A stretch of 64,000 bases of DNA from IMG/VR virus record IMGVR_UViG_3300033463_000014, positions 32,001 through 96,000 of that record. One strand, written 5' to 3'. This DNA comes from a virus. Taxonomy: Duplodnaviria; Caudoviricetes. The notes under the pieces were generated by a model. It was given only the letters and a program-made list of their open reading frames with translations, did not search any database and was not told where the DNA came from. The position numbers and the translations under genes are program-made. Positions 14,069 through 39,770 of the stretch are shown one piece after another; the stretch's first letter is position 1, and the number at the start of each line of letters is the position of its first letter.

Positions 14069-14169
14069 TTTTACTCCTTTAGTTTGTCTTGTTCCGTCTT
14101 TCCTGCCTGCGCCGTCGGTCGCCGGCTAGTACGCGGAGTACTTCCCAAGCAACTTGGCTGACACAGTAA

Positions 14170-14198
14170 ATCATACATAATCCTCTGTGGCGTGTCAA
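14170..14198 (-). promoter_or_regulatory. Sigma70-type promoter for the scaffold-capsid operon
   Basis: TTGACA (14198-14193), 17 nt spacer, TATGAT (14175-14170). Confidence 0.75.
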
Positions 14199-15670
14199 CT
14201 CGCGGACGGCGACACCATGTCCTGCGCCGCTGCGATCGCGATCACGTCGTCCTCACGTATGCCGGCGCATGCCGGCCCTGACAGCGCCGCGGCCAGCGCG
14301 GCCACCTTGTACATCGCGTAGCGCCTGGCCAGCCTGTCCGCGACAGCGGAAACCTCGCCGTCCGCATCCGCGTCCGCGCTTTTCTCCATACGGACGAACT
14401 GCGGGCACTCCCCGGACGCCATGGCAGACAGAATTCCAGTCACGGCGTCCCATGCGGAGAACCCGCCGGCGGACGCGGACTTCGACAGGGCCTCGCGGAT
14501 CGGACCGGGGACCGGACTAGAGAGCGCGAGCGGGCAGGACGGGTCGTAAGACGCGCAGTTGCAGAACCCGGCGCACGACGCCGTCTTGACGGCCTCCGTT
14601 ATGATCCCGGGAACCCTGCGGGCGACATGGCCAGCGTATCGCACGACCTTCCCGTATTCGGGGCCGAACGCGTACTTCAGGAACGATTCGGCGTCGAGGA
14701 TGACGCCGGCGTTCCCGAGCGCGGCGAAGGCGTCGGAAGGGTCAAGGGCCCTGAGCGACGACAGAGTCTCCCCGTCCAGCCTGGCGCCTGCGAGCTTCCT
14801 GAGCTCGAACTCGTATGCCTCCCTAGCCCCCGACGGCTTCGCGCCGCCGAAAATCCACGAGTCCATCCTGGAATAGGCGCCGGCCAGCTTTTTCATGATC
14901 CCGAGCTTCCTGACCGCCAGGTCCGACTCGATGACCAGATCGTCAGGGAGTACGTATCCCTCGATCTCTGCCCGCTTGACGGAACTGCAGATGGGGATGT
15001 CCTCCGGCATGCCAGAAGCGACCTTCAGGCTCCACGCGATGCGGTCCGCTGGCCGGCCGACGAAGGAGATGTCGAACCACGTCGGCTCGTCATTGTAGGT
15101 CCCGATCTGACTGCCGTCCTCCGCGATCTTCCCGAGGCTGTATTTGACGTGGTCGCACTCGTTCTCGTCGCCCGCCTGCTTCCGTATGGCCCCGCAGCAT
15201 GAGCAGCGGTCAAAAGGCACCTTGGCCGCCATGCTGAAGCTGACCTCGCCGGTCTTCTCGAGGCGGTCAAGATGGTCGCGGGCCTTCTCGTTGTCCGCCC
15301 AGATGTACAGCTCGATCCTGTGCATGTCCGGGTTGTATGCCGCGGCCTTGATCTGACCGATTGCCTTTTCGGGGTCCTTGTTCCTGTGGTGCTGGAAGAC
15401 GTGGCCGTACTTCACGAACGTGTCGTGGTACTTGACGCACGCCTCCTTAGGGAACAGATCCCCGTTCCTGTTCATCGGGTACGCCTCTGAGTCCCCGAGG
15501 GCGACCAGGTGGATCCCCGTCATGCCATCCGGAGGCTTGAGCTGGTCGTACCCGCACCTGAAGATCGTGGAGGCCTGCTTTCTCATCTCGGACGCGGACT
15601 TCACGATCTCCCCGCCAACCCCGACGGACTGGCTGATGTCGGAAGAGTATGTGACCTTGATCATCGACAT
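14195..15670 (-). CDS. Prohead maturation protease (HK97/assemblin-like) with Zn-binding insert
   Basis: 491 aa; NRNGDLFP, VFQHHRNKDPEKAIGQI (His), VSFSMA (Ser), CSCCG...CDHV, FDISFVGRPAD; KxA motifs flank the catalytic core. Confidence 0.8.
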   Translation of the reverse strand: MSMIKVTYSSDISQSVGVGGEIVKSASEMRKQASTIFRCGYDQLKPPDGMTGIHLVALGDSEAYPMNRNGDLFPKEACVKYHDTFVKYGHVFQHHRNKDPEKAIGQIKAAAYNPDMHRIELYIWADNEKARDHLDRLEKTGEVSFSMAAKVPFDRCSCCGAIRKQAGDENECDHVKYSLGKIAEDGSQIGTYNDEPTWFDISFVGRPADRIAWSLKVASGMPEDIPICSSVKRAEIEGYVLPDDLVIESDLAVRKLGIMKKLAGAYSRMDSWIFGGAKPSGAREAYEFELRKLAGARLDGETLSSLRALDPSDAFAALGNAGVILDAESFLKYAFGPEYGKVVRYAGHVARRVPGIITEAVKTASCAGFCNCASYDPSCPLALSSPVPGPIREALSKSASAGGFSAWDAVTGILSAMASGECPQFVRMEKSADADADGEVSAVADRLARRYAMYKVAALAAALSGPACAGIREDDVIAIAAAQDMVSPSAS

Positions 15671-15710
15671 GAATCACCCCTCTTTGAATAAACAAACTAC
15701 TCCAGAAGAT

Positions 15711-17200: not shown

Positions 17201-17208
17201 GGAACCTC

Positions 17209-18681: not shown

Positions 18682-18710
18682 GGGACAAAAGTCTCCTTAG
18701 TCATGTCATG

Positions 18711-18739
18711 ATTATACCGAATAAAACGTGTAGAGTCTA
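18711..18739 (-). promoter_or_regulatory. Sigma70-like promoter
   Basis: TAGACT, 17 nt spacer, TATAAT, 30 nt upstream of the ATG at 18681. Confidence 0.65.
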
Positions 18740-19978: not shown

Positions 19979-19995
19979 TTATGTTCATCAATGAA

Positions 19996-21642
19996 TCAGT
20001 TCTTTCTCCTTGCCCTGTCAGCCTGTCCTCCTGCGTCTTTTGCAGCTTGGCTAATCATCCCGCCGGAAAGATCATCAAGCCGAGACACAATGTCTGGATG
20101 TTTCTCAATAAACGGGACGAAGTCTCTCCACCCCTTTTCAATCGACGGGAAAAGTCCGATTGTCTTACTGTTGAACCCTATGTCCCCAAGAGCTGTTTTA
20201 GGCATAAAAACGTATGGCCCGACGTTGTCAAAAAACCTTAGAAGCTCGTCGTAATGTCTCTTCATGGACTCTTCTGTATGGTATGCGCCGGTTCTCCTTA
20301 TGTCTGCGACAACCTTCTTGAGAGCATTAGACCCCTCCAGAGTGGGCGCTGACGCCGAGTAGTCCCAGAAAGGCCTCTTGATCCCGTACCCTTTCATGTC
20401 TGACACGTCTCCGAAACCACCGTTTATGTACGCCGACAGGACATTCCTTGAGGCAGGATACCTTGCGGATGTCCACTTTATCGCATCCATGACAGCGCGG
20501 TCGAGACCGTTTGTCTCTACAGCATCTTTCTGTTCGGCAGACCATCCTTTTCGTTTCGCGTACAAACCCATGACTCCCGGCATGGCGTATGCGAGATTTC
20601 CAATGTAAGCCGATTCTCCTTCCGGCCGCCGATATCCGCTGTCTGGCAACATCCCGGCGGCAAGATATGTCAGTGGGGCAACCCTTACGTCCTCCTTAAT
20701 GCCGTAGACCCCGGGGTTTTCCCCATTAGACGGAACGACTTGAGGCTCTATGGCCGAGACTGCACGCTCGATTGGTCCGACCCTAGGCTTATAAATAAAA
20801 AGCTCCTCGTCATCAGGGTCCGCGAACGCATTCTCCCAAAGGTACACGTTTTTTGGCCTAGGGATATAACCTGTTCCTACTCCTTTTTCCTGGTTCTTCC
20901 GTACGAGCTCCCTAAATGATTCATTGAACGCACGATAATCATTTTTCGTTTTAGCCGTTGCTGCCCTATCGAACAGCGCGACCTCGGGGATTGCGGCCCT
21001 TGCGAGACGAGGATGAAGCGCATCAGGAGTTAAGGTTTCCGCAATCCACTTTCCGAAATCAGCTTTTTTGAGCATCCTCCTTTTCTTCTTCTTCTCCCTG
21101 AGAGCCCTTACCTTTTCCGCTATAACAAACGAGAGCGCTATGGCGCCAGCGACAGATCCTGCTATCTGCGCACCATTACGGACAAGATCCATCCATCGCG
21201 GAACCTGATTTTCTCCTGGAACTTTTGATAATGTCCTATTCCTCCGTCTCCTTCCTCTTCGACTTTTAGATGATCTGGATTTTTCACGTAAAGATTTTTC
21301 GATTTCCGATCCAGAACCGGGAGAAGGGTCAGAAGTGGGAGAAGGGTCAGAACTGGATGATGTCCCAGAAGGGGCTAGAGTGGCAGAAGAGTCTTCTGTC
21401 CCTACGTAAGTGGCCCACCTACCCATTTCTTTAATATCCTTATCCGAGTATACGTCCTGTTTTCGCGAATTGAACGATCTTTCAGCAAAAGATCTCACTA
21501 TTGGAGCGCCCCATTCGTCCCAATCATTTATCCTTTTTCTATCATAAGGCGTACTTCCTGCTATTAACACTTTTAGAGGATCGGGAAGTCGGCTGAAATC
21601 GATTCGTCCTTCTCTCAATGCATTTTCAAGCGTTTTATCCAT
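19996..21642 (-). CDS. Hypothetical protein with one TM-like helix and LKKAD motif
   Basis: 548 aa; SDPSP repeat, basic patch, hydrophobic IAGSVAGAIALSFVIA then KKKKRRMLKKAD. Confidence 0.6.
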   Translation of the reverse strand: MDKTLENALREGRIDFSRLPDPLKVLIAGSTPYDRKRINDWDEWGAPIVRSFAERSFNSRKQDVYSDKDIKEMGRWATYVGTEDSSATLAPSGTSSSSDPSPTSDPSPGSGSEIEKSLREKSRSSKSRRGRRRRNRTLSKVPGENQVPRWMDLVRNGAQIAGSVAGAIALSFVIAEKVRALREKKKKRRMLKKADFGKWIAETLTPDALHPRLARAAIPEVALFDRAATAKTKNDYRAFNESFRELVRKNQEKGVGTGYIPRPKNVYLWENAFADPDDEELFIYKPRVGPIERAVSAIEPQVVPSNGENPGVYGIKEDVRVAPLTYLAAGMLPDSGYRRPEGESAYIGNLAYAMPGVMGLYAKRKGWSAEQKDAVETNGLDRAVMDAIKWTSARYPASRNVLSAYINGGFGDVSDMKGYGIKRPFWDYSASAPTLEGSNALKKVVADIRRTGAYHTEESMKRHYDELLRFFDNVGPYVFMPKTALGDIGFNSKTIGLFPSIEKGWRDFVPFIEKHPDIVSRLDDLSGGMISQAAKDAGGQADRARRKN

Positions 21643-22003: not shown

Positions 22004-24106
22004 CTACACCCCCTTTATCTCGACAGGGTCGTTCGGGCCGATCTCGCCGCCCCTGTACGCCCTGATCGCGTCCGCCTTCGTCTCGAACACCCTGACCGGA
22101 CGCTTCGTCCTGCCCCTCGTAAGCGCCCACAGCCCGGATATCTGCTCCTTCTCGGGCTTGTACCTGACGGACTTCATGTCCGTAAGGCTGATGAGGTTCT
22201 CGGACGGGAGCATCTTCTCAAGGGACTGCTTTGCGGCCTTGTCGCTCGCCGGCACGTGGATGTTCACCGTGTTGCTGAGAACGACGCCGTCGTCTGAAAT
22301 GAACGTGTCGGGGCCTGGCACAGTAAGATCATACCCGATTTCCTCCTTGCCCGTCTTCTCGACGGACTTGATCTTGAGCCACGAAACCTTATATGACGCC
22401 GTCTCCGAAAGGGCCTTCATCTCGGCGCAATCCCTGAGTTCGGTGTCCGGGCTTCCGTACAGGGAAAACAGAGCCTTTATGTCCCCCAATTGTGACCATG
22501 TAAGGAATCCCTTCTTCCTCGCGATGTATATGTCGTTAACCGATTTCCTCACATCGGAGGACCATGTCGGAGCGATCCTTGGCTTCGAGGCGTTCCACCC
22601 GTCCGAGAGGGCTTTCAGCTCGTCGCCGCTCACGCTGACCTTCCACGACCTCCTGCTTCCGCCCGCGTCCTTCTCGAGCATCCCGGAGAACCTCGACTCG
22701 ATATCAGCAAGCACGGACAATCCATTATCCCTTGCGATTGTGTTCTTTTCGGCCATCTCGTTCCCAATGGCCTCGATATCGCGGACGGTATTCCTGGTTA
22801 TCGTTCCGATACACGCGCGATTCCTCACGTTCATGGCGACACTATTCACTTTTCTTCTCATCGCCATCTCGTCTTCTCCTGCGGATCCCTCGTCAGAACC
22901 CGAAACCTCGAAAGTCGGTATCAGACGCGATATCTTTTCCGCTATTCCGCGAGGGAACGGGATCACATCGTTCCTGACGTAGGTTGAGCGCGTGTCAACA
23001 TGGGAAGAGACGAAAATGTCCCTCTTTCTCGAATGGCAGCACATCGAGAGGAGATCCACGCGCTTCGCGTCAACTGTGCTTACTGAGCATATCCAAGAGT
23101 CGTTCCCTCCGGACGTGCGCTTGCTGTAGGAAATAGAAGACCCGACCCCGAGGAGCTGGCAGCACCTCCTGAACTCCCTGACGAGACGGATGGATGTGCT
23201 TGAGAACGATATCAGGAGCTGGGGCTTCTCTTTGCTGTGGCTCAGGCATACCGTCCCGTCCGTAGCGATAAGCCCGTTAACGAGACCAAGGATAAACTCC
23301 CTTCCAGCGAACTGGAACCAGACCGGAAGCCTCTTATTGGCTGACCCGGACGTTTTCTCGTCCCCATGCCCGTCGATGAGCTCCTTGATCCGTCCTCCGA
23401 GAATACTTCGTCTACCGGAGTTCAGCCTGTAAGCGGTCGTGTCCCCGTACCTACCGGACTCATCGCAGAACCTGTGCTCGATCTTCGATATCGTGAAGTC
23501 CGGGAAAACGGTCTTCAGGAAGTCTGATACGAAGGCGATGTTATATCCATCGTTGTCCGAGAGATATGGGTTTAGGCACCTGTCCGCCCATCCGTCTCCA
23601 GCCATGATTCCGACGAACTGTCCGAAACCGAACCCGATTTCAGTACACAGCCCTGACTTTTCCAGCTTGATCATCCCATCCTGAAAATCAAACGACAGGC
23701 CATCAACAGAGGAGGCTAGAGGACAGTCCGATACGGGGACGAGAACATTCTTGTCCATCGCATCGGACGGCGTGAACCTCCCCGGAGTCATTGAGTCTCC
23801 GTTGGCCGCGATGCCGTAGACTGCCCTCGGGTCGTTGTCCGTGATGATCTGCCTTCCGTCCTCAAGGTTTACGATCTCAACCTTCTTCCCCCGATGCACG
23901 GACCAGAATTTGACATCCCTGAACTCGGGGAGACCGGTCTTCTCGTTGTATGAGGAAACCCTCACGCCTTCCGGGACATCGTAGAACTCAATGTCGTATC
24001 CGGAATCCTTCCTCACTGACGAGAGCCCGCCATGGGGGAAGTCCTCGAGATCAACGACAACCGGGACACCTTCCATCTCAGCCACCACGCTCTTTTTGAT
24101 CTGCAT
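22004..24106 (-). CDS. rpoC: C-terminal part of a split (or frameshifted) intein with LAGLIDADG endonuclease, fused to an 88-aa RNAP beta-prime C-extein
   Basis: 700 aa. LAGLIDADG motifs VGIMAGDG and VNGLIATDG; block F/G IKSVEKTGKEEIGYDLTVPG...VVLSN. Then TVNIHVP...KMLPSENL...PEKEQISGLWALT, matching RpoC QMAVHVP...LMMSTNNI...PSQDVVLGLYYMT. Own AAGGAG RBS. Confidence 0.85.
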   Translation of the reverse strand: MQIKKSVVAEMEGVPVVVDLEDFPHGGLSSVRKDSGYDIEFYDVPEGVRVSSYNEKTGLPEFRDVKFWSVHRGKKVEIVNLEDGRQIITDNDPRAVYGIAANGDSMTPGRFTPSDAMDKNVLVPVSDCPLASSVDGLSFDFQDGMIKLEKSGLCTEIGFGFGQFVGIMAGDGWADRCLNPYLSDNDGYNIAFVSDFLKTVFPDFTISKIEHRFCDESGRYGDTTAYRLNSGRRSILGGRIKELIDGHGDEKTSGSANKRLPVWFQFAGREFILGLVNGLIATDGTVCLSHSKEKPQLLISFSSTSIRLVREFRRCCQLLGVGSSISYSKRTSGGNDSWICSVSTVDAKRVDLLSMCCHSRKRDIFVSSHVDTRSTYVRNDVIPFPRGIAEKISRLIPTFEVSGSDEGSAGEDEMAMRRKVNSVAMNVRNRACIGTITRNTVRDIEAIGNEMAEKNTIARDNGLSVLADIESRFSGMLEKDAGGSRRSWKVSVSGDELKALSDGWNASKPRIAPTWSSDVRKSVNDIYIARKKGFLTWSQLGDIKALFSLYGSPDTELRDCAEMKALSETASYKVSWLKIKSVEKTGKEEIGYDLTVPGPDTFISDDGVVLSNTVNIHVPASDKAAKQSLEKMLPSENLISLTDMKSVRYKPEKEQISGLWALTRGRTKRPVRVFETKADAIRAYRGGEIGPNDPVEIKGV

Positions 24107-24242
24107 CTCCTAAACTCCTTTTCTGATTGGATGCGTGATAATTTATCAAAAACTTAAGATTGATGCAACCAATATCTTTGCTACTCAAAAAGTCGTCAAG
24201 AGCCTTGCCAGTAAGGCTGACGCGAACGCTTCCAATCTGCTG
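22271..24242 (-). mobile_element. Intein inserted directly after RNAP catalytic NADFDGD, split over two ORFs (N part 24242-24078, C part 24106-22271)
   Basis: Removing it restores NADFDGD-TVNIHVP; ends in Asn followed by Thr; carries a LAGLIDADG homing endonuclease. Confidence 0.8.
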
Positions 24243-27200
24243 GTCGCCGTCGAAGTCGGCGTTGAACGCGCCACAGACTAGAGGGCAGACGTTGATTGAG
24301 CGCCCTTTCACGATGTGAGGCTTGAAGGCCATGATGTTGAACTTGTGCCACGTCGGGGCCCTGTCCATGAGAACGGGCCGCTCCTCCATGACGTCGTCCA
24401 GTATGTGCCTCGCAGTGGCGTTTCTCTCGTCGATCATCTCCTTTGAGGCGACCGGGGAATAGCCGCGCTGGACGAGCTTGCGCTCTACGAAGGGTCTGAA
24501 TATTGTCCAGGCCATGTCCTCAGGGATCCCGATCTGGTCCATGCTGAGGTTGCCGTTCGGGGTGATGACGGAGCGTCCGACGAGGTCCTGGGTCTTCGAG
24601 ACGGTCTTTGCCTGGAACATCCCCATCTTCGGGACTGTCCCTATCACCTGCCTGACGGCGCCCTTGAGGTTCTTCGCGCGGCCCTCCTGCGTTACGGGGT
24701 CACCGAGCCCGTAGGCGGCCTTCACGGCCCCGTAGACGGCAAGGCGCTCGTCCGCGAGGGCGGAGGCGGGGAGCTCCCTGGAGAGGTCCTCGTAGTTGCG
24801 CTTCATCTCGATGAGCTCCTTGTAGAGCTCGTTCATGTCGGGCACGAGGGCTACGTCGCCCATCTTGGAGACCGGGCGGAACATGGGCGGGAGAACGGGA
24901 ACCCGCGAGATCATCCAGTCTGACGGAGAGATGCCCATCTTATTGGCGGACTTCAGGTATCCGAGGACCTTAACGGCGTTGTCCCGCTGCGCCCCGCGCC
25001 TGGTTAGAACCTCCGAGCGGGCCTTCTCGATGGCGCCGTCCACGTCGACCTTCGACAGGGCTTCCCTGAGGGCTTCCCCGCCCGTCTTGCCGTTCAGCTC
25101 CTCGCGTCCGGAGAGGACGGCCTCCATTTTCTTCGCCGTCAGTCCGAGGACGCGGCGTACGGGCTCCTCCATCATCGGGTTTGGGACGGGATCCGGGAGC
25201 GTGATCATGCTCCAGCGGTTTCCGCCCATCCCGCCCGTCTTTCCGAGGTCGAAGAGTCCTCCCCTTACGGGGTTCATGTCGGGGTCGACCATCTGCGAGG
25301 AGTCGATCACTCGGCCCTGGGCGAGCTCGTCGATGTCCTTGTCGGTCTGCGGCATGATGGATGTGACGTCTCCCTTCTCCACGACGTTCACGCCGCCGGC
25401 GCGGAGTGTGTTCAGGAACTTCTGGTAGATGAACGGCACTCCGGGCTCCTCGACGGGGAGCCCGAGGCGGTAGCGGCGCCAGTACTCGTCGTTGCGCGAG
25501 CCGCGCAGGGTTATGGAGTCCTTCAGGACGTCGGTCGCGCCGTGAGAGAGCAGGGCCGTCGCGTCAAAACCAGAATTTGAAACCAGGCAGTCAGAAGCAC
25601 AGTATTTGTGCGATTTCGCAACTGTAATGTCATACAGGCATATTTCGTCGTCTGGACCATGCTTGCCATCGCTGTACGGCCTCACAGATGTGACAAGCGC
25701 CGGGACGCTTCCAAGTGCGTAAGCAGTGTCTACACCTACGTACGTTTCATACAGCCTTGAAACTTCATTTATCAGCCACTTCTTAGAGGCTGGTATGTCT
25801 TCAGGCCTGATGTATTTGGCTACAATACGAGCCATACTGCGGCAGGCATCAGCAGACAACCCCAAGTAATAATACTCTTTTTTTACACCTTTGTAGGTTT
25901 TATGCGTCGTCCTGACAGTCACGCCAGCGCCAAGCCTCCCGCAAAGCCATTCGGCAAGCCTACAGTTCTCTTCATACGTAAAGTTCAATGTTGATATTGC
26001 CCCAAATGGGCTACCGGTCGGCACTCCATTCTTCGTGTGCTCAGATGCGCAGCCATCGTCAAGGAACCATGCGGCTATGCCGACATCATTTATGTTAGAC
26101 AGGTCGACGTTGACAAGGCTCTTACGACCGAGAGACCCGTCTGGCTGTCTATAGAACATGTTCTTGAGCCGTTCTGCTATGTCATGGCGGTGAATCTGAA
26201 AATACACAATATGCGAGTCGTCTCCATCAGCACGCCTAAATCCAGTCTTGCTCTTCCTCTGGGTGTTCTTTCTGCTTGACACCAGCGCTCCTAGGCAGTG
26301 TATCTTCCAGTTGACGTAGGCGTACTGATGGTGGCTGTGCTGCTCTTGGTAGAACGGTATACATCCGACGTCTAAGCTATTCGTCCTGTCAGACTTGCAT
26401 AGATTGTCGTTTATATTGCATATGCATCCATCGCCAAGCATAGAACCCATTAGAATGGACATCTGGTCCTCTGTAGGCACATACCCGTATGTCGTCAGCC
26501 AGTCACCAGGCCTTAAATCACCAGCAAGAACTTCACCTTTGTTGAAGGAGTACATGTGATGCTGACGTGTGACATGCATCGTCTTGCCTGTGTATACTAC
26601 TCGCTTACGGCTACAATTATCTGACCCTGGCAGATAGTTAATTGATATGGACAGAACCTCTGACATCTTCCCCTTGCGGCAGAACCAGTTCGTTATGAGA
26701 GAATAACCCCATGACCCGTTGTCGAAGCGGGTCCACACGTATTCGGGAATTTTCTTGTCTACGATATGACCTATGGATTCCTCTCCATGCAATACCCTGA
26801 TCGGCTGATCTGCGGTGAAACACATACGCTTAGCACCGTCATCGCCCCCCTTGGCCGGCTGCTCGTCCATCGTGTAGGCGCTGTCCACGCCGCGTGCCGA
26901 GAACTTCTTTTCGGCCAGGTGGTGGAACGCCTTGACGTACGCGTACCCGTCTCCGACGTTCTTGATGATCCTTCCCGTCTGCGGGTCGAACACGTCTGAC
27001 GACTCCTTGACGCCGTTCTCGTCCATCTGCCGTTTGACCCATGCGGTCCACCCCTCTTGCGGCGGCAGCTGAGGGATGCGGATCTGCTTCCCTGTCTTCT
27101 TGGCCACCTTGGCGAGGTTCATCAGGGCTATCTGGCCCGGGGCGACGCGGGAGAGGAAACCCATGGGGTTCATCAGCATGTCGTACGGCTCGTTCGTGGC

Positions 27201-30200
27201 CGCGTCGCGCGGCATCTTATCGTCCGGGATGACGTCCGAGACGACCCCCTTTAGAGAGAAATCGGGGCACAGCTTGTCGCCGGGCTTCACAGGAGGGTCG
27301 CTGTTGACGATCACCTTCGCGCCGTGCGGTCCCGACACGATGTCCGTGACGACTCCAGGCCAGTCGTGCTCCCACTTCTGTGATCTGTCCGTGATGGCGT
27401 TCCTCAGGACGCCGGAGAGCTTTCCGAGCTGTGCGTTCTCCGGTGACAGCATCTTGGGCCCGATGGCGAGGATCATGGGGTCGTCCCTGTGGAGCACGGT
27501 ACCGACCTTTACGACGCCGTCGTCCCCGATCGTGTCGGCCTGCGCCTTCGTGTAGGCCGACGGGAACGCCGCGAGGAACTTCGACCTGGCGATCTGCACG
27601 CCGTTCTTAGTGTCCTGCTCGAAGTTGTACGTGCGCGACGTGGCGAGCTTCTTCGCCGCGGATTCCGAGATCACGATGGCGTCCTCGAACGACGACGTGC
27701 CCTGCGGGGCGGGAAGCACGGCGACCTTCAGGTTCCGTCCCATGGTGACCGTTCCGGTCTTCGGGTCGGTGAAGTTGGAGTTGGCGAGGATTCCGCCCTC
27801 CTCCACCTCGTCTCCCTTTTTCACCTGGGCGGTGAACGAGAGGGAGGACAGGCGGTTGAACGGGAGGCCCTTGACGAGCGACGCGGTGTGCTCGCGGCCG
27901 TCCTTCCCGCGGAGGACGATCTCATTGTCGCTCACCTTCACTACGGTACCGGCGAACGGGGCCGTCAGGCATCCGACCCTCCGCCCGTAGTACTCGCCGT
28001 ACGTCGTTTTCCCGTCGTCGGTCAGGCTCTCGACAAGAGGAACCTCTCCCTCTTTCTGGGGGAGGAACTGCTCCCAGAACTTCGACATGTAGAACTGGCG
28101 GGCGCCCATGACGGCCGTTGGCATCGGGTTCATGTTGATGCCGGCAGACACGGTGTTGCCGAACCCAGGCACCATGAAGTCCACCTCGTCCCTGGGGACC
28201 ATCGTAGGCACGCCCTTGCGCATGACGTAGAGGTTGGGTGACTTCGGGTCCTGGCCCGGGAAGGCCACGGTGTGGGACGACGCGTCGTTCAGGGAGACGT
28301 AGCGGGTTTTACCGGTCCGCATGTCGATCATCTTGTTGTAGATCCGGTTGTCGCTCCCCTTCATCGTCCCGAGCGCCGCCCTGACGTCGATCCCGATGCC
28401 GAACGACTCAGGACCGCTGATGAAGTCCACGTAGCCCAGGTAGTCACCCTGGACGTTGCGGGCCTCGTTGGTCACGAGGTCGGGCGAGGAGATGCCGCCC
28501 TCCCCAAGGCGGGTGATGCGGGACTGCTGGGTGAGGAGCGACATCGGGTTCGCCTCCTCTCCTGGCATCGCGAGTCCGGACCCCGAGAGAAAGGTGTCGA
28601 GATAGGGCCCGAGCGCGTTCCTGGCTATGCGGGCCAGCGAGCGGTCCCGCTTCGCCCTGAACAGGAGGGACTTCGTGAGGCGTCCAGAGTCGCGGTCGAT
28701 GCGCTCGCGCATCATGTCCTCCACCCCGTAGAACCGGCTGAAGCGGGGGTTGTCGCGCTCGTCCGGCTCCTCAGCGCCCCTGTTGATGTTCAGGAGCTTC
28801 TGCGCGGCCCTGAGCATGACCTTCCCGGTCACTCCAGAGGCGTTCTCAAGCCCGAGCGTCCGGACGACGACGTCTGGGTCGAGCCCGCTGGAGGCAAGCG
28901 ACTCGGAGATGAACGAGGCCTTCTCGGACGGGGTCAGGCTCATGTCGGCCCGGCGGCCGGCGTAGCGCGCGTAGACCTTGTCGACGGCCCTAGGGTCGAA
29001 CTTGGCGATGTTCACGTTCGCAACGGCGTCTCCCCAGGACTTCCGCATGTCGTCATCCGACACGCCGAGGGCGCTCAAAATGGGGTAAAGGGGGACATGG
29101 CCCTGTCCGACGCTCATGTTCAGTGCGCCGGTCGACCTGTCCAGTCCGATCCGGAAGCCGAGCCCGTTCGCCACGTTGAACTGGGACTCGAGCTCGCCGT
29201 TCTGCTTGCGGCGCACGTAGACCCCGGGGGACAGGCGGGCCTGAGAGATGACGGTGTACTCGCTCCCGTTATTGATGATCGTTCCCCTGTCGGTGTAGTA
29301 AGGTACCCTGATGACGCCGTCCCTTCGCTCGTCCAGGACTTTCCCGGTGCGCTTGTCCGTCAGGCGCCACGTCCCGGCGACAGAGCATCCGAGGCGCCTG
29401 TTGTTCAGGATGGCCCTCTTCTGCTGCTCAAGCGTGTAGGAGGTAGGACCCTCGTATTTAACGTCCAGAAGCTCGAGGCGCACGTCGTCGTTCTCGATCG
29501 GGAAGCGGTTCTTGACGGCTTCAAGGACGTTGTCCATGATGGCCTGCCGAGTGGCCGGCGCGTCCGTGAACCCGCGTAGCCTCACGCCCGGAGGCACGCC
29601 CTCCATGGGATCGTCGGCGTCGTCCGCCTGGGAAGTCTTGACTATGCTCTTCTCTTTCTTATATCCGGAAGCAGTCTCCTCGTCGTCAAGATTCTTCTGA
29701 GCCTCTTCCCGAGTGTTGAACACCTTCCCGGGATGGTCTCCGAACCCGCCGTACATGGCGAGTCCGGTGGTCTTAAACCTTCCCCCTTCTTCGATGTCTG
29801 GGGAATCTAGCCAGCAGCAGTAGTAATCCTTTCCGTTGGACCGCTTCCCGCCGTAATAGTATCCTACGATCTTACGTACCTTTCCACTCATCCTCGCGTG
29901 AGGGAAGGTTACCCATTTCCCGATAGGAAATTTTTCCTTCATTTCCGCGGGGATATCATCCTCCTCATGACGATCTTGCGATGTCTTGACGATGCTCTTT
30001 TTTTCGGCTGGATCTGATTTGGCGGCAGGGGCCTTGTCCGCGGGAGCCTGTTTTTCGGTCTTGGCTGGATTCGAGGCCTCCTGGTTCAGGACCCAGACGT
30101 CACCGTTCCTCCTGAGCCTCTTCATGAAGTCGCTGTGGAGCTTCGCCGACTTCGCGACGGCCGCCTCGCTGTAGCTCCTGTTCCCGGGTATCGTGTGGGC

Positions 30201-31349
30201 AGGAGTAAACACCTTTCTCAGAAGCCAGTCGGCGTACTTGTCAGCGGTGAACTCCGCCCCGGCGGCCATGTGGGCCTTGTAACCGGACCTGGACGGCATG
30301 TAGACCTTCGTGAAATAGTCGATCTGGCTGTCGGACGAGTCTTGAAGCCCGTTCTTCGCGAGCCACGCCTTATAAGCATCAAGAGAGGGGCCCGTGTACT
30401 GGAAGAGCCCGCGTCCACCTCCCCCTCCCATCTGCTTAGTGGCGTAGTCGAATCTACCTCCTGTCTCCCTGTCTATGTTCGCCAGCACAGCGGCCTCTAG
30501 AATCGGGTTGTTCAGATTCTCGTGGAGCCTCTTTGCAACGTTATTGAACCTTTCGTAGACATCCACCGGACCGGCGGCTTGCTTTGGCGGGGGGATAACA
30601 ATTTTCTGCCCGATAGAGAGAACGTTCGGGTTCTTGAGGCTGTTCGCGGCGATCAGCTCTTTCAAAGGAACCTTTAGCTTTTGGGCGATACCGTAAAGCG
30701 AGTCGCCCTTCTGGACGACGTATTCGGACGGGCGATTGACAGGATTGACCTGGGCCGCCTTCTCGTTGACCTTTATCGGATCGACGATCGGAGCGACGGA
30801 CCTGTACTCGTGGAACGGCTTGGTCTTGCGGTCAGACGAGTCGATCCACTTCCTGAACTCGGCCTTGGAGACAGGCGTGATCCATCCTAGGCCATTCCAC
30901 CCCTTCTGGTAGCAGGCTAGGTAGGTCTTCTTGGCGTCCTCGACGCTGTCGAAACCGTACATGACCTTGTGCTCGTCGAACTTTCCGGTCTTGGGGTCCA
31001 CCTGGTCGATGACGAAGACGCACCCCTTCTCCGGATGGTCGGACAGGTAGATGTCCACCGGGTCGCCGTCCGTGTCTGTCGTGCCCCTGATGTCTCCGTA
31101 GTCGCATGCGAGAGCATTGCTCCACCTCGTCCCGTCCGGAGAGACCCCGGATCGGATTGACCCCTTCGGGTTCTCTATGGACACGCGGAACCCGTCGATG
31201 GACAGGTGGACCTTTCTGTAGTTCCCCGCCCTTCTCTGCCCTTCTGTGGGGTTCTCGGCTGCGTCAGGGGCTCCTGCGTTCACGGCGCGCTGCGCCGGCG
31301 AGGAGGCCTTTTTCGAGAAGATCGAGTCGATGGTTTCAAGTAGCGTCAT
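24078..31349 (-). CDS. rpoBC: Phage RNA polymerase polyprotein: InPase-like, LysM, tail-lysozyme-like, cassette, RNAP beta (with intein), RNAP beta-prime N-part to NADFDGD, N-intein
   Basis: 2423 aa. RpoB motifs: GTIINNGSEYTVISQARLSPGVY, SFEDAIVISES, PGDKL....LKGVVS, MNPMGFLSR, HHLAEKKFSAR, QPAKGG. RpoC motifs: GGLFD, WMISRVPVLPPMFRP, GRSVITP, VLMDRAPTWH, AFNADFDGD (NADFDGD at 24263-24243). Confidence 0.92.
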   Translation of the reverse strand: MTLLETIDSIFSKKASSPAQRAVNAGAPDAAENPTEGQRRAGNYRKVHLSIDGFRVSIENPKGSIRSGVSPDGTRWSNALACDYGDIRGTTDTDGDPVDIYLSDHPEKGCVFVIDQVDPKTGKFDEHKVMYGFDSVEDAKKTYLACYQKGWNGLGWITPVSKAEFRKWIDSSDRKTKPFHEYRSVAPIVDPIKVNEKAAQVNPVNRPSEYVVQKGDSLYGIAQKLKVPLKELIAANSLKNPNVLSIGQKIVIPPPKQAAGPVDVYERFNNVAKRLHENLNNPILEAAVLANIDRETGGRFDYATKQMGGGGGRGLFQYTGPSLDAYKAWLAKNGLQDSSDSQIDYFTKVYMPSRSGYKAHMAAGAEFTADKYADWLLRKVFTPAHTIPGNRSYSEAAVAKSAKLHSDFMKRLRRNGDVWVLNQEASNPAKTEKQAPADKAPAAKSDPAEKKSIVKTSQDRHEEDDIPAEMKEKFPIGKWVTFPHARMSGKVRKIVGYYYGGKRSNGKDYYCCWLDSPDIEEGGRFKTTGLAMYGGFGDHPGKVFNTREEAQKNLDDEETASGYKKEKSIVKTSQADDADDPMEGVPPGVRLRGFTDAPATRQAIMDNVLEAVKNRFPIENDDVRLELLDVKYEGPTSYTLEQQKRAILNNRRLGCSVAGTWRLTDKRTGKVLDERRDGVIRVPYYTDRGTIINNGSEYTVISQARLSPGVYVRRKQNGELESQFNVANGLGFRIGLDRSTGALNMSVGQGHVPLYPILSALGVSDDDMRKSWGDAVANVNIAKFDPRAVDKVYARYAGRRADMSLTPSEKASFISESLASSGLDPDVVVRTLGLENASGVTGKVMLRAAQKLLNINRGAEEPDERDNPRFSRFYGVEDMMRERIDRDSGRLTKSLLFRAKRDRSLARIARNALGPYLDTFLSGSGLAMPGEEANPMSLLTQQSRITRLGEGGISSPDLVTNEARNVQGDYLGYVDFISGPESFGIGIDVRAALGTMKGSDNRIYNKMIDMRTGKTRYVSLNDASSHTVAFPGQDPKSPNLYVMRKGVPTMVPRDEVDFMVPGFGNTVSAGINMNPMPTAVMGARQFYMSKFWEQFLPQKEGEVPLVESLTDDGKTTYGEYYGRRVGCLTAPFAGTVVKVSDNEIVLRGKDGREHTASLVKGLPFNRLSSLSFTAQVKKGDEVEEGGILANSNFTDPKTGTVTMGRNLKVAVLPAPQGTSSFEDAIVISESAAKKLATSRTYNFEQDTKNGVQIARSKFLAAFPSAYTKAQADTIGDDGVVKVGTVLHRDDPMILAIGPKMLSPENAQLGKLSGVLRNAITDRSQKWEHDWPGVVTDIVSGPHGAKVIVNSDPPVKPGDKLCPDFSLKGVVSDVIPDDKMPRDAATNEPYDMLMNPMGFLSRVAPGQIALMNLAKVAKKTGKQIRIPQLPPQEGWTAWVKRQMDENGVKESSDVFDPQTGRIIKNVGDGYAYVKAFHHLAEKKFSARGVDSAYTMDEQPAKGGDDGAKRMCFTADQPIRVLHGEESIGHIVDKKIPEYVWTRFDNGSWGYSLITNWFCRKGKMSEVLSISINYLPGSDNCSRKRVVYTGKTMHVTRQHHMYSFNKGEVLAGDLRPGDWLTTYGYVPTEDQMSILMGSMLGDGCICNINDNLCKSDRTNSLDVGCIPFYQEQHSHHQYAYVNWKIHCLGALVSSRKNTQRKSKTGFRRADGDDSHIVYFQIHRHDIAERLKNMFYRQPDGSLGRKSLVNVDLSNINDVGIAAWFLDDGCASEHTKNGVPTGSPFGAISTLNFTYEENCRLAEWLCGRLGAGVTVRTTHKTYKGVKKEYYYLGLSADACRSMARIVAKYIRPEDIPASKKWLINEVSRLYETYVGVDTAYALGSVPALVTSVRPYSDGKHGPDDEICLYDITVAKSHKYCASDCLVSNSGFDATALLSHGATDVLKDSITLRGSRNDEYWRRYRLGLPVEEPGVPFIYQKFLNTLRAGGVNVVEKGDVTSIMPQTDKDIDELAQGRVIDSSQMVDPDMNPVRGGLFDLGKTGGMGGNRWSMITLPDPVPNPMMEEPVRRVLGLTAKKMEAVLSGREELNGKTGGEALREALSKVDVDGAIEKARSEVLTRRGAQRDNAVKVLGYLKSANKMGISPSDWMISRVPVLPPMFRPVSKMGDVALVPDMNELYKELIEMKRNYEDLSRELPASALADERLAVYGAVKAAYGLGDPVTQEGRAKNLKGAVRQVIGTVPKMGMFQAKTVSKTQDLVGRSVITPNGNLSMDQIGIPEDMAWTIFRPFVERKLVQRGYSPVASKEMIDERNATARHILDDVMEERPVLMDRAPTWHKFNIMAFKPHIVKGRSINVCPLVCGAFNADFDGDQQIGSVRVSLTGKALDDFLSSKDIGCINLKFLINYHASNQKRSLGDADQKERGG
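24140..24168 (-). promoter_or_regulatory. Internal sigma70-like promoter upstream of the 22004-24106 ORF
   Basis: TTGCAT, 17 nt spacer, TAAATT with upstream TG, in an AT-rich patch about 35 nt before the ATG at 24106. Confidence 0.5.
25575..26822 (-). mobile_element. Intein with LAGLIDADG homing endonuclease in the RNAP beta C-terminal region (416 aa)
   Basis: Starts CFTADQPI, block B VTRQH, motifs LMGSMLGDG and IAAWFLDDG, ends YDITV...LVSN then Ser. Removal restores GAKRM-SGFDATALLSHGA (RpoB GGQRF-GEMEVWALEAYGA). AT-richer than flanks. Confidence 0.9.
29635..29999. repeat. 17-bp direct repeat (1 mismatch), copies 348 bp apart, flanking a 116-codon cassette inside the RNAP polyprotein
   Basis: gtcttgactatgctctt at 29635-29651 and gtcttgacgatgctctt at 29983-29999; both copies lie within KSIVKTSQ. 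Confidence 0.8.
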
Positions 31350-31464: not shown

Positions 31465-33180
31465 CTAGGTTTTGGCATTCGAGACGGTGGAAGGCTGCGG
31501 AGCCATACCTGAAAGAGCCTTGTTCACATAGTTTCTAGTGAACATCCTCCTCAATCCCAGACCGTTCATAAGCCAGCTCAGGAATCTAAACCACAGGCTC
31601 CCTCCCCTAGCCCACCCGTTATTTACGATCATTCTGTTCGTCCTGTCCTCCACCAATTGGTTCCACCCGGGGTGACTCCCATCGTTTAGGTAGCTCGTGA
31701 ACAGGTCCCCTACCCTCTTGTCGGTGGTAACCCTTCTCTGAAGCTCATTCGGATCAAGTTTGGCGAACATGCCAAGCCTGTCCTTCGGAATCATCTCAAG
31801 CATTTTTTCCCTAGCGAGACGGGTATTCGGGTTTTCAGGGTCATACGCTTTCGCTATATCCAAAAGCTTATCCTTGTTCTTCTCATCGCTTATGATACCG
31901 TATATTTCGTTTACGGCGTTACCGTATCCTGTGTCATTAGCTTCATACGCATCCTTTGGGACGAATTCCTCCTTAATTTTGTCCACGGCCCTACTGAATA
32001 AGTTCACCGAGTCTTCCGCCTTTTTCTCCATTACAAAGTCCATGAACATGGCCTGCTTGATGGACGCGGCTGCGAGTGCGGCCTCAGGCCGGATCCTCAT
32101 GTCCTTACCGTCAACTGTCCTGTATAGGACGAACCGGTCGTCCGGTATCGAGCTGGACCTGTCCTTCGCCTCCTCCTTCTCCCTCTTGCGCATCTCCATG
32201 ATCTTGTTCGTGACCATCCACATGGCGACGGCCGGGATAATGAACGACGATCCTATCACGGCTCCGGTAAGCGAGTTGATGTTCTCTCTGGGACCGTATC
32301 CCTCCTCCTGGGCCGTTTTCTCGCCTCCGCCCTGCAGGATGTTGACGTAGCGATTCCTTGCCCGCTCGGCGTTCTTCATTGAATTCTGCGCCCTCATCTT
32401 GTTTACCCTGTCGACAATCATGGCGGACAGGTAGATGGCGCCGACCCCTCCAGCCGATATGGCAGTAGGGACGAAGGCCCCGGACTGGATGAACGCCTTC
32501 ATCGTCTTGCCAGGATGGGCTATGGCCTTCCACGTCGAGTCAGCCCAATCAAGGTTCCAGCCGTCGTCCTTGGCCGTTTTCTCGTTTGATCCGGAATCTT
32601 GCCCGTTTCCTCCATCCCCGTTATCGCGCTTCTCTCGCTCCTCCTCGGCCTTCATAACGCCGATCGGGGATGTCGGGGACACGAACCTTCCGGCGTCGTC
32701 CCTGGGGAGATCCGTCTTTTTGTCACCGCCTTTCTCCGGAACGTCATCCTTGCCGCCCTCAGGCTTCGCCTTATCGGGCTCTGGAGAGCCTGACCCGTCC
32801 ACGGCAGCCTTCGTGCCGAAAAAGTCGAACCGCCTCTCGCTCTTTCTCGATATCTCCCTCTTGAGACTGTCGATATCCTTTTTATCCATCCCCGAGATGT
32901 CCGTCTTCGCCACAGCGTCCGTTTCCCCTCCGAACATCCTCCTGTGCTCCTCCGGCGTCGGCAGGCCCTTTGTGAAGTTGGACTTATCGATGTCGACTAT
33001 GATCGCACTCTTGGACTTGTGAGGGTCAATGGCCTTCCGGCGCTTATCGTCCGACTTGACCCCGCTCGCGTACGTCCCGATCCCGGCCGACAGGACGCCG
33101 GCACCGAGAGCCCACCTCAGGTATTTCGCGAGTTCCTTACGCTGCCTTTCATCAAGTTGCAACTTAGCGCTCTTAATCAT
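31465..33180 (-). CDS. Putative internal virion/ejection protein with three hydrophobic segments, each preceded by a KxA motif
   Basis: Start moved to ATG 33180 (AAGGAG RBS), 571 aa; IKSAK, EKTAK, EKTAQ, EKKAE; TM-like WALGAGVLSAGIG, AISAGGVGAIYLSAMIV, GAVIGSSFIIPAVAMWMV. Confidence 0.65.
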   Translation of the reverse strand: MIKSAKLQLDERQRKELAKYLRWALGAGVLSAGIGTYASGVKSDDKRRKAIDPHKSKSAIIVDIDKSNFTKGLPTPEEHRRMFGGETDAVAKTDISGMDKKDIDSLKREISRKSERRFDFFGTKAAVDGSGSPEPDKAKPEGGKDDVPEKGGDKKTDLPRDDAGRFVSPTSPIGVMKAEEEREKRDNGDGGNGQDSGSNEKTAKDDGWNLDWADSTWKAIAHPGKTMKAFIQSGAFVPTAISAGGVGAIYLSAMIVDRVNKMRAQNSMKNAERARNRYVNILQGGGEKTAQEEGYGPRENINSLTGAVIGSSFIIPAVAMWMVTNKIMEMRKREKEEAKDRSSSIPDDRFVLYRTVDGKDMRIRPEAALAAASIKQAMFMDFVMEKKAEDSVNLFSRAVDKIKEEFVPKDAYEANDTGYGNAVNEIYGIISDEKNKDKLLDIAKAYDPENPNTRLAREKMLEMIPKDRLGMFAKLDPNELQRRVTTDKRVGDLFTSYLNDGSHPGWNQLVEDRTNRMIVNNGWARGGSLWFRFLSWLMNGLGLRRMFTRNYVNKALSGMAPQPSTVSNAKT

Positions 33181-33616
33181 CTCCATCTCCTTCATCGCAT
33201 TCATCGCCTTCATCGAATTCGCAGCCTTCGTCTGTCTCATCACCTTTTGACGGACTATCTCCTTCCCCGGCGAACTCCACATACTCGACATACTTCATCC
33301 AGTATGACGTCCCGTCTGGACGCCTAACAAGGTCCTTGCTCGTCTCGACAACGGCCTCAAGCCTTCCCACCTTCACGAGCAGACGCTTCCAAAGACTCTC
33401 GTACGCCTTCCTCTGATCAATGTCGGAAAGGTCGAATATCTCGACCTTCACCTTCTTGACCCTGAACTCGCTCCCGAATCCAGGAACCGGCGTCCCCCCA
33501 TCACCGCCTTCCGAAGCCCTGAATAGGGAATCAGGATTTATCGGGGCTCCAGTACAAAATGTCGGCACCCCCCTGCGGGCTGGACTTGACGAAACGAACG
33601 AGAATCCAGACATCAC
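33173..33616 (-). CDS. Hypothetical protein
   Basis: 147 aa; acidic repeat tail; overlaps both neighbours by a few nt. Confidence 0.6.
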   Translation of the reverse strand: MMSGFSFVSSSPARRGVPTFCTGAPINPDSLFRASEGGDGGTPVPGFGSEFRVKKVKVEIFDLSDIDQRKAYESLWKRLLVKVGRLEAVVETSKDLVRRPDGTSYWMKYVEYVEFAGEGDSPSKGDETDEGCEFDEGDECDEGDGDD

Positions 33617-38021: not shown

Positions 38022-39770
38022 CTACGCCTCGTTCGGGTCGAGGCGGTCGTCGACTGGGGCGTCCCCGCTCACAATACCTCCGCCGAACGCCTCGGGCGGT
38101 ATCATGTCGTCGACGGCCATTCCGAGCAGCTTCATCGCGGCCATGCTGGCGAAGCACAGGGCGTGGCAGAAGTCGTCTGGCTGTGACTGGTTCCTGAGGT
38201 AGAGCCTGTGCGTTATCCCGCCGACCTCCGTTGTCGCCTCGTAGTCCGACAGGAGGTCCTCGAGGTAGATCCAGAACCCCTCCTCCTTCGGGAAGAAGGT
38301 CCTCCGGTTCCTAATGGCTAAAAAAAGGACGTCTAGCGCCATGACCTTGTCTATGGTCCAGCACTGGACGGTGTTCGTCCTTCCCGTTGACTGGTTCCTT
38401 CCGAACAGCTTGAGCTGCCGGGTGTACTGCATCTGGATGATGGGGAGCCCGAACCTCTTGGCCAGGATCTGGTTCTTGTCCAGACCCATTCCTGCGTCAG
38501 CCGCACACGCTATGACATTGTAGAACCGGCACACCTTGGCTATGTCCGTCATCTGCTCGTCGGGGTCGAAGCCCCTGTAGCGCCTCGCCCATAGCACGTC
38601 TATGCGGCCGCTCGGACGTATCCCGATGACCGTGATGACGGTGAAGGACGAGAGCTCCGCTCCGCCCCAGTCGATTCCGGCAACGGTGAAGGAGTACCGG
38701 TTCGGGTTCGCCTTCAGCTCCTCCTGAAGCGTCTTGGTCGAGGGGAGGAGGCACTGGCGCTGGATGTCGGCCCGCGTCAGTAGCCTCTGTCCGACAGAGT
38801 AGGAGATTCCGAGGTTCTCCTGGATGAAGGTCGCAAGGATTCCGGACGTCAGCTTGGTGAGCAGGCGGTTCCACTTTGCCGGGTCCTCCACGATCGCCGG
38901 CACGACGACCTGGGGTATGTGGTAGCCCCTGAAGGAGTTCATCCTGCCCGGGAATGCGGCGATCCACTTGCCATCCCTGACGTTGAGCTTTCTCCCGCAG
39001 TGTACGCAGTGCATGCCGTCCGCCTGGATCATGTTGAGGACCTTGCCGTCCATGTTGGGTATGTTGTGGTACCCGCATGACTTGCACCGCATGACCCACT
39101 CGCACTGGGCGCTCTTCTGCCATAGCGACTCGATGAGGTTCTCGACCACCATGGCCGTGCCTGTGTAGCGGGAGCACCCGTACTTTGCGGACGTTAGCGT
39201 CTCCTTGACGATCGGGATGGTCTCCGAGGACTGGGACTGTATCTCGTCGAAGTCGCAGAACTCCTCCTCGAGGCCGCGGACGCGGTCGGCCGACGACTTG
39301 GCGTAGGTGAGGACTACACCTGATCCGTTCGCGAAGCTCTTGTGACCCGTGGCCTTGTTGATCTTCGAGTCGGACATCGTGTCGGCTAGAGCCTGAGACT
39401 GGAGGGCCCCGGCGAGCGGGCATGACTTGATGGCCTCGCTCAGGATGAGGTCGCTGTACCGCCTTGACTGCTCCTGCAGCGGGGCGACGTAGAGCATCTG
39501 CAGGTTCGGGATCGTGATCATGTTCATCACCTCGCTCCTGGCGAGGTTCTGCGTCTTCCCGATCTGCCTGCCCGTCATGAAGATCATGTCCGGGACGAGC
39601 TCCCTGCCGTACATGACCCTGAACTGCGGGTAGTCCCTGAGGCTGTAGGGCTCACCCCTGATCCTGAACAGGGCGGGGAGCAGGTCTGCGCGGTCCATTG
39701 AGCGCATCCTCTCCCTGAAGGAATCGCTCCTGGCGATCCTGACAAGCTCCTCCGCCCCTATCTCTGCCAT
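38022..39770 (-). CDS. terL: Terminase large subunit (lambda gpA-like)
   Basis: 582 aa; Walker A GRQIGKT, DRVRG...CDFDEIQ Walker B, TGT motif, CKSC/CVHC Zn finger, RGYHIPQ, nuclease GIDWG and PDDFCHA. Confidence 0.9.
   Translation of the reverse strand: MAEIGAEELVRIARSDSFRERMRSMDRADLLPALFRIRGEPYSLRDYPQFRVMYGRELVPDMIFMTGRQIGKTQNLARSEVMNMITIPNLQMLYVAPLQEQSRRYSDLILSEAIKSCPLAGALQSQALADTMSDSKINKATGHKSFANGSGVVLTYAKSSADRVRGLEEEFCDFDEIQSQSSETIPIVKETLTSAKYGCSRYTGTAMVVENLIESLWQKSAQCEWVMRCKSCGYHNIPNMDGKVLNMIQADGMHCVHCGRKLNVRDGKWIAAFPGRMNSFRGYHIPQVVVPAIVEDPAKWNRLLTKLTSGILATFIQENLGISYSVGQRLLTRADIQRQCLLPSTKTLQEELKANPNRYSFTVAGIDWGGAELSSFTVITVIGIRPSGRIDVLWARRYRGFDPDEQMTDIAKVCRFYNVIACAADAGMGLDKNQILAKRFGLPIIQMQYTRQLKLFGRNQSTGRTNTVQCWTIDKVMALDVLFLAIRNRRTFFPKEEGFWIYLEDLLSDYEATTEVGGITHRLYLRNQSQPDDFCHALCFASMAAMKLLGMAVDDMIPPEAFGGGIVSGDAPVDDRLDPNEA

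Follow-up and report, generated by a model that had tools for sequence, protein, structure and literature searches.

A phage β/β′-type RNA polymerase chain fused to pyrophosphatase-like, LysM-lysozyme and cassette modules, with K-x-A motifs at the module boundaries

The complete IMG/VR virus record IMGVR_UViG_3300033463_000014 (Duplodnaviria; Caudoviricetes; 181,382 bp with direct terminal repeats) encodes in its bases 32001-96000, a stretch of 64,000 nucleotides termed the window, a single open reading frame (ORF) in which several unrelated domains are joined to an RNA polymerase. Coordinates are given in window numbering unless marked as genome positions. The ORF, P0001, lies on the minus strand at 24078..31349 and encodes 2423 amino acids arranged as a leader, an InPase domain, a LysM-lysozyme module, a cassette termed cassette A, the polymerase β subunit with an intein, the N-terminal part of β′ as far as the motif NADFDGD and a tail of 54 codons. 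Polymerase homology begins at Met-582 and is preceded by 581 residues, in agreement with a first-pass annotation made from the letters of the DNA, which had counted about 600 residues ahead of the RpoB homology. The RNA polymerase named in that annotation is present, with the correction that it comprises β plus only the N-terminal part of β′. Judged from its sequence, P0001 is the only β/β′-N polymerase chain of the phage and is built from a leader and independent putative cargo modules, each ending in a short K-x-A/S tag.

The first 16 residues (31302..31349, minus strand, as for all parts of P0001 below) end in KKAS at residues 13-16 and are proposed to form a capsid-targeting leader with the first cut site. 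The InPase domain occupies residues 37-169 (30843..31241) and matches Pfam PF18823 with E 2.3e-50 and a score of 170.4 bits against a cut-off of 26.8, covering profile positions 2-134 of 135. The motifs IENPKGS, DYGDIRGT, DGDPVD and DEHKV are invariant among 13 aligned homologues, and DQVD is likewise present and invariant. The conserved acidic residues presumably have the catalytic, metal-binding roles known from family I pyrophosphatases (D-x-D-x-x-D type). The nearest sequence in the PDB is the unmodelled C terminus of the Pa193 portal (PDB code 9b41). The domain is predicted to be a family-I-type pyrophosphatase of the kind found in polyvalent proteins, and its substrate could instead be nucleotide-derived (PMC5512222). 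The motif KAAQ (residues 197-200, 30750..30761) marks the boundary that follows.

The LysM domain at residues 210-253 (30591..30722; Pfam PF01476, E 3.5e-15, 56.1 bits) is the only LysM in the genome, and its model superposes on solved LysM structures with a Foldseek probability of 1.0 and a root mean square deviation (rmsd) of 0.9-2 Å. Next to it, at residues of about 264-421 (30087..30560), is a helical lysozyme-like domain of the phi29 gp13 N-domain type. The Phage_lysozyme2 profile (PF18013) matches residues 286-352 with E 1.3e-7 and 32.4 bits against a cut-off of 28.2, covering only profile positions 21-88 of 140. The AlphaFold2 model of this part has a predicted local distance difference test score (pLDDT) of about 80, and its comparison with the gp13 structures (PDB codes 3csq and 3csr) in Foldseek gives a probability of 0.99 and a template modelling (TM) score of 0.55 by target, but an E of about 0.03 and an rmsd of about 6 Å. 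A comparison of the domain with PDB sequences gives no meaningful match. The glutamates of LEAA and RETGG are invariant in five homologues. Pfam thus matches on P0001 all three of the domains that the first-pass annotation expected, InPase, LysM and lysozyme-like. The same annotation had set LysM and lysozyme apart as two domains between separators; KQAA (residues 256-259), which lies between them, is missing in four homologues, and because it is not conserved the two are treated here as one module.

A disordered linker rich in Pro, Ala and Lys (residues 426-458, 29976..30074; pLDDT 31-32) leads from the lysozyme to cassette A and ends in SIVKTSQ, with KTSQ at residues 455-458. The 116-residue cassette described at first pass is real: cassette A spans residues 459-574 (29628..29975) and ends in a second SIVKTSQ, with KTSQ at residues 571-574. 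An imperfect 28-nt direct repeat flanks it, the copies being 348 nt apart, 82% identical and each encoding SIVKTSQ. Within the SIVKTSQ codons the two copies differ at synonymous positions only, which argues for selection on the peptide rather than on the DNA. The model of cassette A shows a small SH3/Tudor-like β-barrel with two helices (AlphaFold2 pLDDT 83, predicted TM score 0.75). Its fold matches are weak, with Z of 5.5-4.5 in VIA-align to a chromo barrel, the UvrD and PcrA Tudor domains, CarD and EF-P; Foldseek gives no match at E ≤ 0.001 and the ESM Atlas feature search nothing usable. An assignment as a polymerase-binding Tudor domain of the UvrD/CarD type was considered and is kept as a lead only, the best Z of 5.5 being below a trustworthy level. 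Among the separators noted at first pass, KKAS, KAAQ and KTSQ conform to the pattern K-x-[A/S]-[Q/S/A/E], and EKQAP does not.

Relatives were collected in searches with residues 1-600 and with the β core and are counted as 120 metagenomic polymerase clusters at 90% identity. An InPase is attached to the polymerase in 92 of the 120, cassette A is present in 53 of these 92 and the LysM-lysozyme module in 8 of the 120, so that the comparison of orthologous N termini suggested at first pass bears out the fusion. P0001 is found in identical form on two contigs. A single frame also joins InPase, LysM, lysozyme and polymerase in seven more clusters, which come from different samples, and P0124 combines LysM and lysozyme with the polymerase but has no InPase. 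Because the same protein is found on two contigs and the fusion is conserved among relatives, the fusion in P0001 is confirmed as genuine, and the mis-assembly or missed stop codon that the first-pass annotation had named as ways for it to fail is set aside. Upstream of Met-582 no Shine-Dalgarno-like sequence was found, which leaves an independent start just before the RpoB region, the third such way, without support. The presence of InPase follows relatedness of the polymerase: clusters with a β core at least 78% identical have it in nearly all cases and those at or below 72% have none. In the cultured relatives Salmonella phage Arash and Vibrio phage D69 (both at 30% identity) and in contig L082 the polymerase homology is found directly at the start. 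In sister clades without InPase, an acidic stretch separates the core from a leader of ∼20 residues (M-x-L-K-x-A-I-D-E-W-L…) that ends in K-x-A-Q.

The region between InPase and β varies among relatives in the manner of an array of cassettes. The simplest form, in P0075, is a single motif (…IKVKAAQAKQDDPMEG), the "empty" arrays of P0065 and P0079 have two motifs side by side with nothing between them, and the largest array, in P0005, holds up to six unrelated modules. The LysM-lysozyme module is first in the array of some relatives and last in that of another. K-x-[A/S]-[Q/E] is found at every module end. Among 69 family members used for counts of motif position, K-x-[AS]-[QE] lies at most 14 residues before the core in 67 and K-x-A-S in the first 25 residues in 68; a site at most 40 residues after the InPase is found in 67 relatives.

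Several of the arrays contain other cassettes or rearrangements. Seven clusters (P0012, P0049, P0064, P0067, P0072, P0082 and P0086), recognized by motif alone, have at the same array position HExxH-containing cassettes that are possibly zincin-like peptidases, and P0024 and P0159 have a GNAT-like cassette; the precomputed Pfam lists assign neither type to a family. In P0004 (L090:3001-10548) the lysozyme cassette is followed by a second copy (…PVVDPIKVNEKVAA) of the InPase end (…PIVDPIKVNEKAAA), a duplication that looks like a recombination scar of cassette insertion. The 202-kb relative L066 has its InPase within a separate protein of 546 residues (6689-8329, plus strand), 4 kb upstream of a polymerase gene that is intein-rich and encodes 2340 residues. 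K-x-A-[AE] tags separate the parts of this protein, which also include a DxDGT (haloacid dehalogenase-like) stretch and a GWG motif of SET-like type. A second IMG/VR scan with InPase-derived patterns gave mostly unrelated phages of 50-60 kb, only L066 and L082 being useful.

The boundary motif is shared with the proteins of the surrounding head module, taken here as the 17 proteins from a 72-residue ORF at 5457 to the probable portal. K-x-A-[QSAE] occurs 64 times in these proteins compared with 17.6 ± 4.0 expected from composition-preserving shuffles (z = 11.6). Control motifs in the head module (reversed, shifted, Arg for Lys and Ser for Ala) show no enrichment, and neither does the looser K.[AS][QSAE] in the rest of the genome (83 compared with 89 expected). 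The 339-residue putative capsid protein and the proteins of 413, 490, 491 and 913 residues have N-proximal sites, many of them 11-31 residues from the N terminus. In the 69 family members, whose counts are not independent since the sequences are related, the motif is found 67 times in the leader (8 expected), 0 times in the InPase (7 expected), 170 times in the linker array (31 expected) and 18 times in the core (140 expected); the polymerase core of P0001 has no K-x-A-[QSAE] at all. As an independent replicate, the head module of Arash (L002 and L100) has 34 occurrences compared with 10.8 expected, and the Arash tail proteins 4 compared with 4.6. The polymerases of Arash (gp206) and D69 start with MPKSAS and MPKKAS, respectively. 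From these sequence patterns K-x-A-[S/A/E/Q], noted along 5457-21642 on the minus strand and in the Arash loci, looks like a conserved head-protease code, and it appears to be conserved across the whole Arash-like group, the polymerases of which are only 30% identical. A stricter pattern, [EV]K[TSAEMN][AS]Q, was rejected as a genome-wide code, having 5 hits only, of which the polymerase gene accounts for 3.

The gene order along the minus strand is TerL, probable portal, polymerase, several K-x-A-rich proteins, a candidate protease, scaffold-like proteins, a putative capsid and the sheath. The large terminase (38022..39770) matches phrog_675 with E 1e-60. The probable portal (31465..33291, 608 residues), directly upstream of the polymerase gene, is so named from synteny only: a gene of 492-631 residues lies ahead of the polymerase in relatives, and in Arash this position is taken by the portal gene. 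The 608-residue protein has no Pfam, PHROG or PDB match, and BLASTP against the Arash portal gives E 0.06. The candidate head-maturation protease (14195..15670, 491 residues), about 8 kb downstream of the polymerase gene, matches phrog_18299 "head maturation protease" with E 9e-5, and its ESM Atlas feature hits are to Peptidase_S77/S78 clusters at 0.91. The putative capsid protein (10475-11494, 339 residues) has no match in PHROGs, the only collection with which it was compared; the capsid proteins of mReC phages are of the T4 type, PF07068 (Weinheimer and Aylward 2020). Gene calls were filtered by the G+C content at third codon positions (GC3), which is 0.7-0.9 in the real genes of this region. 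A 583-residue plus-strand ORF (10370-12121) overlapping the capsid gene was discarded as spurious, with a GC3 of 0.56 and a first-position value (GC1) of 0.85.

The polymerase core extends from Met-582 to NADFDGD (24243..29606) and consists of β fused to the N-terminal part of β′, with Pfam matches to RNA_pol_Rpb2_6 (E 3e-30) and RNA_pol_Rpb1_2 (E 1e-21); NADFDGD is at residues 2363-2369. A LAGLIDADG intein of 416 residues (residues 1510-1925, 25575..26822; Pfam LAGLIDADG_2) interrupts β. This intein (CFTADQ…CLVSN/SGFD) is present in L005 and absent from L004 and is thus mobile within the clade. Exactly after NADFDGD, in the region 22004-24263 (minus strand), β′ is cut by about 150 nt of low G+C content containing a stop codon and a strong Shine-Dalgarno sequence, which gives the tail of 54 codons, and the sequence indicates that the frame of P0001 ends inside a disrupted intein-like insert. 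An overlapping ORF of 700 residues (22004..24106, minus strand) with its own Shine-Dalgarno sequence is Hint/LAGLIDADG intein-like and ends in ...VLSN/TVNIHVP, the β′ continuation; in relatives without an intein (L004 and L005 are uninterrupted here) DGD-TVNIHVP is continuous. The identical split of β′ is found downstream of P0057 and P0059, that is, in at least two relatives, and the alignment consensus shows the 54-codon tail to be kept in many. The C-terminal half of β′ is encoded about 110 kb away, at genome positions 172676-175702 (minus strand), in a frame of 1024 residues compared with 606 in Arash. It matches in two blocks, has neither a leader nor K-x-A-[QSAE] and probably holds a further insertion, perhaps an intein. 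The genome has one β gene.

The identities of the domains, the conservation of the fusion, the array of cassettes, the statistics of the motif and the setting of the gene, all of them observed, are brought together in a proposal to which about an even chance is given: P0001 would be a leader-tagged, capsid-packaged polymerase bearing cargo that is freed by the head-maturation protease. The chain would be made late, along with the head proteins, and be taken into the prohead. There the protease, for which 14195..15670 is the candidate, would cut at the tags, most likely at K-x-A/(S/A/E/Q) by analogy with assemblin-fold proteases; the cut is placed after Ala because this is the most constrained position and because proteases of this fold cut A/S. 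At infection the polymerase and the freed enzymes would leave the capsid with the DNA. The polymerase would then transcribe the early genes, the pyrophosphatase would clear inorganic pyrophosphate (PPi) or a nucleotide-derived signal and the lysozyme would act on peptidoglycan. We infer the cut, the pairing of protease and substrate, the ejection and all of the enzyme activities. Packaging is suggested by analogy with the 30%-identical cultured relative Arash, in the virion mass spectrometry of which Gp206 has 3516 spectra, the most of any protein, and Gp216 (β′) has 1210 (PMC10585845). The packaged kit cut apart by the prohead protease that was envisaged at first pass has thereby gained comparative evidence, namely the conserved fusion, the boundary motif, the head-module enrichment, the candidate protease and the Arash spectra.

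Several observations weigh against this proposal. The protease assignment is weak at its E of 9e-5, the Pfam S77 and S78 models match nothing in the genome, and in some relatives the HExxH cassettes could take the place of the head protease in processing the chain. With a single β gene the same enzyme may also act unpackaged. K-x-S-[QSAE] occurs 9 times in the head proteins compared with 11 expected, yet the sites of cassette A are KTSQ (relatives mostly have KTAQ at the sites flanking this cassette), and outside the polymerase gene the stricter [EV]K[TSAEMN][AS]Q has only two occurrences. Arash gp206 starts ∼20 residues before the polymerase homology and has no InPase, lysozyme or cassettes, and carry-over is possible in the Arash "virion" proteome, the 116 proteins of which include reductases and ligases (PMC10585845). 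Finally, the Tat-like (twin-arginine translocation) leaders on stand-alone homologues of the LysM-lysozyme point to cytoplasmic export and not to capsid delivery.

A rival reading is that the chain stays whole, with several enzymes tethered to the polymerase in the manner of N4 gp50, the tags being flexible Ala/Lys-rich linkers and recombination joints. N4-like virion polymerases are single giant proteins that can carry lysozyme domains (PMC5512222), the linkers of P0001 are predicted to be disordered, and both the adjacent motifs in the empty arrays and the duplicated ...DPIKVNEK[AV]A... after the P0004 lysozyme cassette look like recombination scars. Linkers for cassette exchange in one gene fail, however, to explain the enrichment of the same motif in head proteins that are unrelated, frequently at 11-31 residues from the N terminus, and in the Arash head module. 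The depletion of the motif in the folded InPase and polymerase core, and the synonymous differences in SIVKTSQ that argue for peptide selection, also count against an uncut chain, which is considered unlikely. An artefact, whether a chimeric assembly, a missed stop or an independent start just before the polymerase part, has in its favor that the record is a metagenome assembly; the identical protein on two contigs, the seven further clusters with the full set in one frame and P0124 as an eighth without InPase, the 92 InPase-polymerase clusters and the lack of a Shine-Dalgarno sequence before Met-582 make it extremely improbable.

A different role for the protein is that of a cytoplasmic transcriptase rather than capsid cargo, in which the pyrophosphatase pulls the reaction forward and the LysM-lysozyme is a relocated lysis enzyme. 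The single β gene is consistent with this, and the lysozyme itself supplies further points. Stand-alone LysM-lysozyme proteins 47-57% identical to the module exist in related large phages, several with RRxLLK Tat-like leaders and some with C-terminal cassettes that are also found in polymerase arrays; an earlier interpretation of these leaders as capsid-targeting tags was dropped, as several are better read as Tat signals. In two related phages (L097 and L098; TerL 50% identical) a LysM-lysozyme gene lies between homologues of two genes that are neighbors here. The homologues of these flanking genes are adjacent at genome positions 168801-170702, separated by a 294-nt gap, a site that can be termed empty. 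In the 181 kb no SLT, T4-type Phage_lysozyme, Amidase_2 or GH19 domain and no second LysM were found, these being the five families tested. Because of the empty site and because no other tested muralytic domain is present, the LysM-lysozyme module may have moved into the polymerase gene, and its function could lie in lysis, either alongside entry or in place of it. The wall breaching at entry assigned to it at first pass is for these reasons uncertain. Against a purely cytoplasmic enzyme are the location of the gene within the head module, with the probable portal on one side of it and the protease on the other, the resemblance of the leader and K-x-A-S to the N termini of other head proteins, the Arash polymerase subunits among the virion proteins with the most spectra and the occurrence of InPase elsewhere in portal fusions and predicted virion-delivered proteins. 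As the search covered five muralytic or wall-binding families, the genome may encode an endolysin that escaped recognition. The cytoplasmic role is regarded as distinctly improbable.

The packaged and processed polymerase can be extended to a broader view, held tentatively and at somewhat less than even chance, in which the polymerase N terminus is a general "cargo bus": by virtue of a short capsid-targeting leader and a K-x-A/(S/A/E/Q) protease code, any module placed between two tags would be loaded in step with the polymerase, cut free and injected. The modules so far would be the pyrophosphatase, the muralytic enzyme, the HExxH peptidase-like and GNAT-like cassettes and the Tudor-like barrel, and they would shuttle between the array and stand-alone genes via recombination at the tags. 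If this view is true, the injected proteome of each phage would be predictable from sequence alone. If packaging and processing are true, they would link virion-packaged multisubunit polymerases, polyvalent effectors and head-maturation protease specificity, which are usually studied apart. They would also provide a sequence rule (leader plus K-x-A tags) that predicts the injected proteins of roughly 180-kb phages, and a natural system that loads variable enzymes into capsids. Salmonella phage Arash offers a cultured model for the tag, with mass-spectrometry data on its virions already available.

Polyvalent proteins, delivery-fused virion polymerases and protease-processed capsid cargo are all known already. 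N4-like virion polymerases fused to lysozyme were described earlier, and the clearance of PPi by InPase for early transcription was proposed (PMC5512222). Literature searches gave no description of an InPase on a cellular-type β/β′ polymerase, of a polymerase of this type with a variable array of cassettes or of the K-x-A code, and no mention of InPase fused to a multisubunit polymerase was found in PMC5512222 or in the jumbo-phage survey PMC7824862. P0001 is the first case found in which an InPase is fused to the polymerase that generates the by-product it is proposed to clear. Polyvalent proteins are late-expressed and presumably virion-delivered, with several unrelated effector domains, among which InPase and lysozyme are typical phage-type domains (PMC5512222). 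P0001 shares with those of Iyer et al. (2017) the presence of at least two unrelated effector domains in one frame and the location among packaging and virion genes, with TerL upstream and the candidate protease and sheath downstream. Its polymerase differs in being a cellular-type β/β′ rather than the single-subunit N4 type. For polyvalent proteins a zincin metallopeptidase has been proposed for processing; P0001 has none by Pfam, and its joints carry the head-protein motif instead. N4 gp50, the crAss-like gp66 and the tape-measure-fused polymerase of P23-45 are likewise joined to the cell-delivery apparatus. They are described as single giant proteins of fixed architecture and of other polymerase lineages, with no motif-delimited variable cassettes.

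Arash gp206 is the homologous fused β/β′-N protein, 30% identical over 99% of the β part, its gene lies just downstream of the portal, and it shares with P0001 the K-x-A enrichment of the head module and, in MPKSAS, the N-terminal motif. PB1-like Pseudomonas phages (Pa193 and E217 gp19; PDB code 9b41, PMC11456595) have an InPase of the same family (E 1.9e-28) in a portal fusion, where the domain sits on a protein inside the capsid, at the portal. There it forms the C-terminal tail of the portal itself, which is unmodelled (residues 529-765 lack density), whereas in P0001 it stands at the head of the gene that follows the probable portal. The N-domain of phi29 gp13 (PF18013) is a virion-borne lysozyme-like fold that acts at the wall during entry as part of a tail-knob protein. 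T7 gp16 is an ejected muralytic internal core protein. Compared with both, the lysozyme-like domain of P0001 is preceded by LysM and placed inside a polymerase gene, and its structural match is modest, at E of about 0.03. A parallel to the proposed processing is found in T4, with the prohead protease gp21 and the capsid-targeting leaders of the internal proteins IPI-III and Alt, and in phiKZ, with gp175 and its substrates; there proteins that enter the prohead and are injected later begin with a short leader and then the protease motif. The motif recurs, as it does here, in scaffold and core proteins. The motif is L/I-x-E or S/A/G-x-E in those phages compared with K-x-A-(S/A/E/Q) here, where it also parts several cargo modules in one chain and the protease is only weakly recognizable. 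The leader of P0001 ends in KKAS, a form of the motif that also marks the scaffold, capsid and protease proteins, and is in this respect like the T4 internal-protein type.

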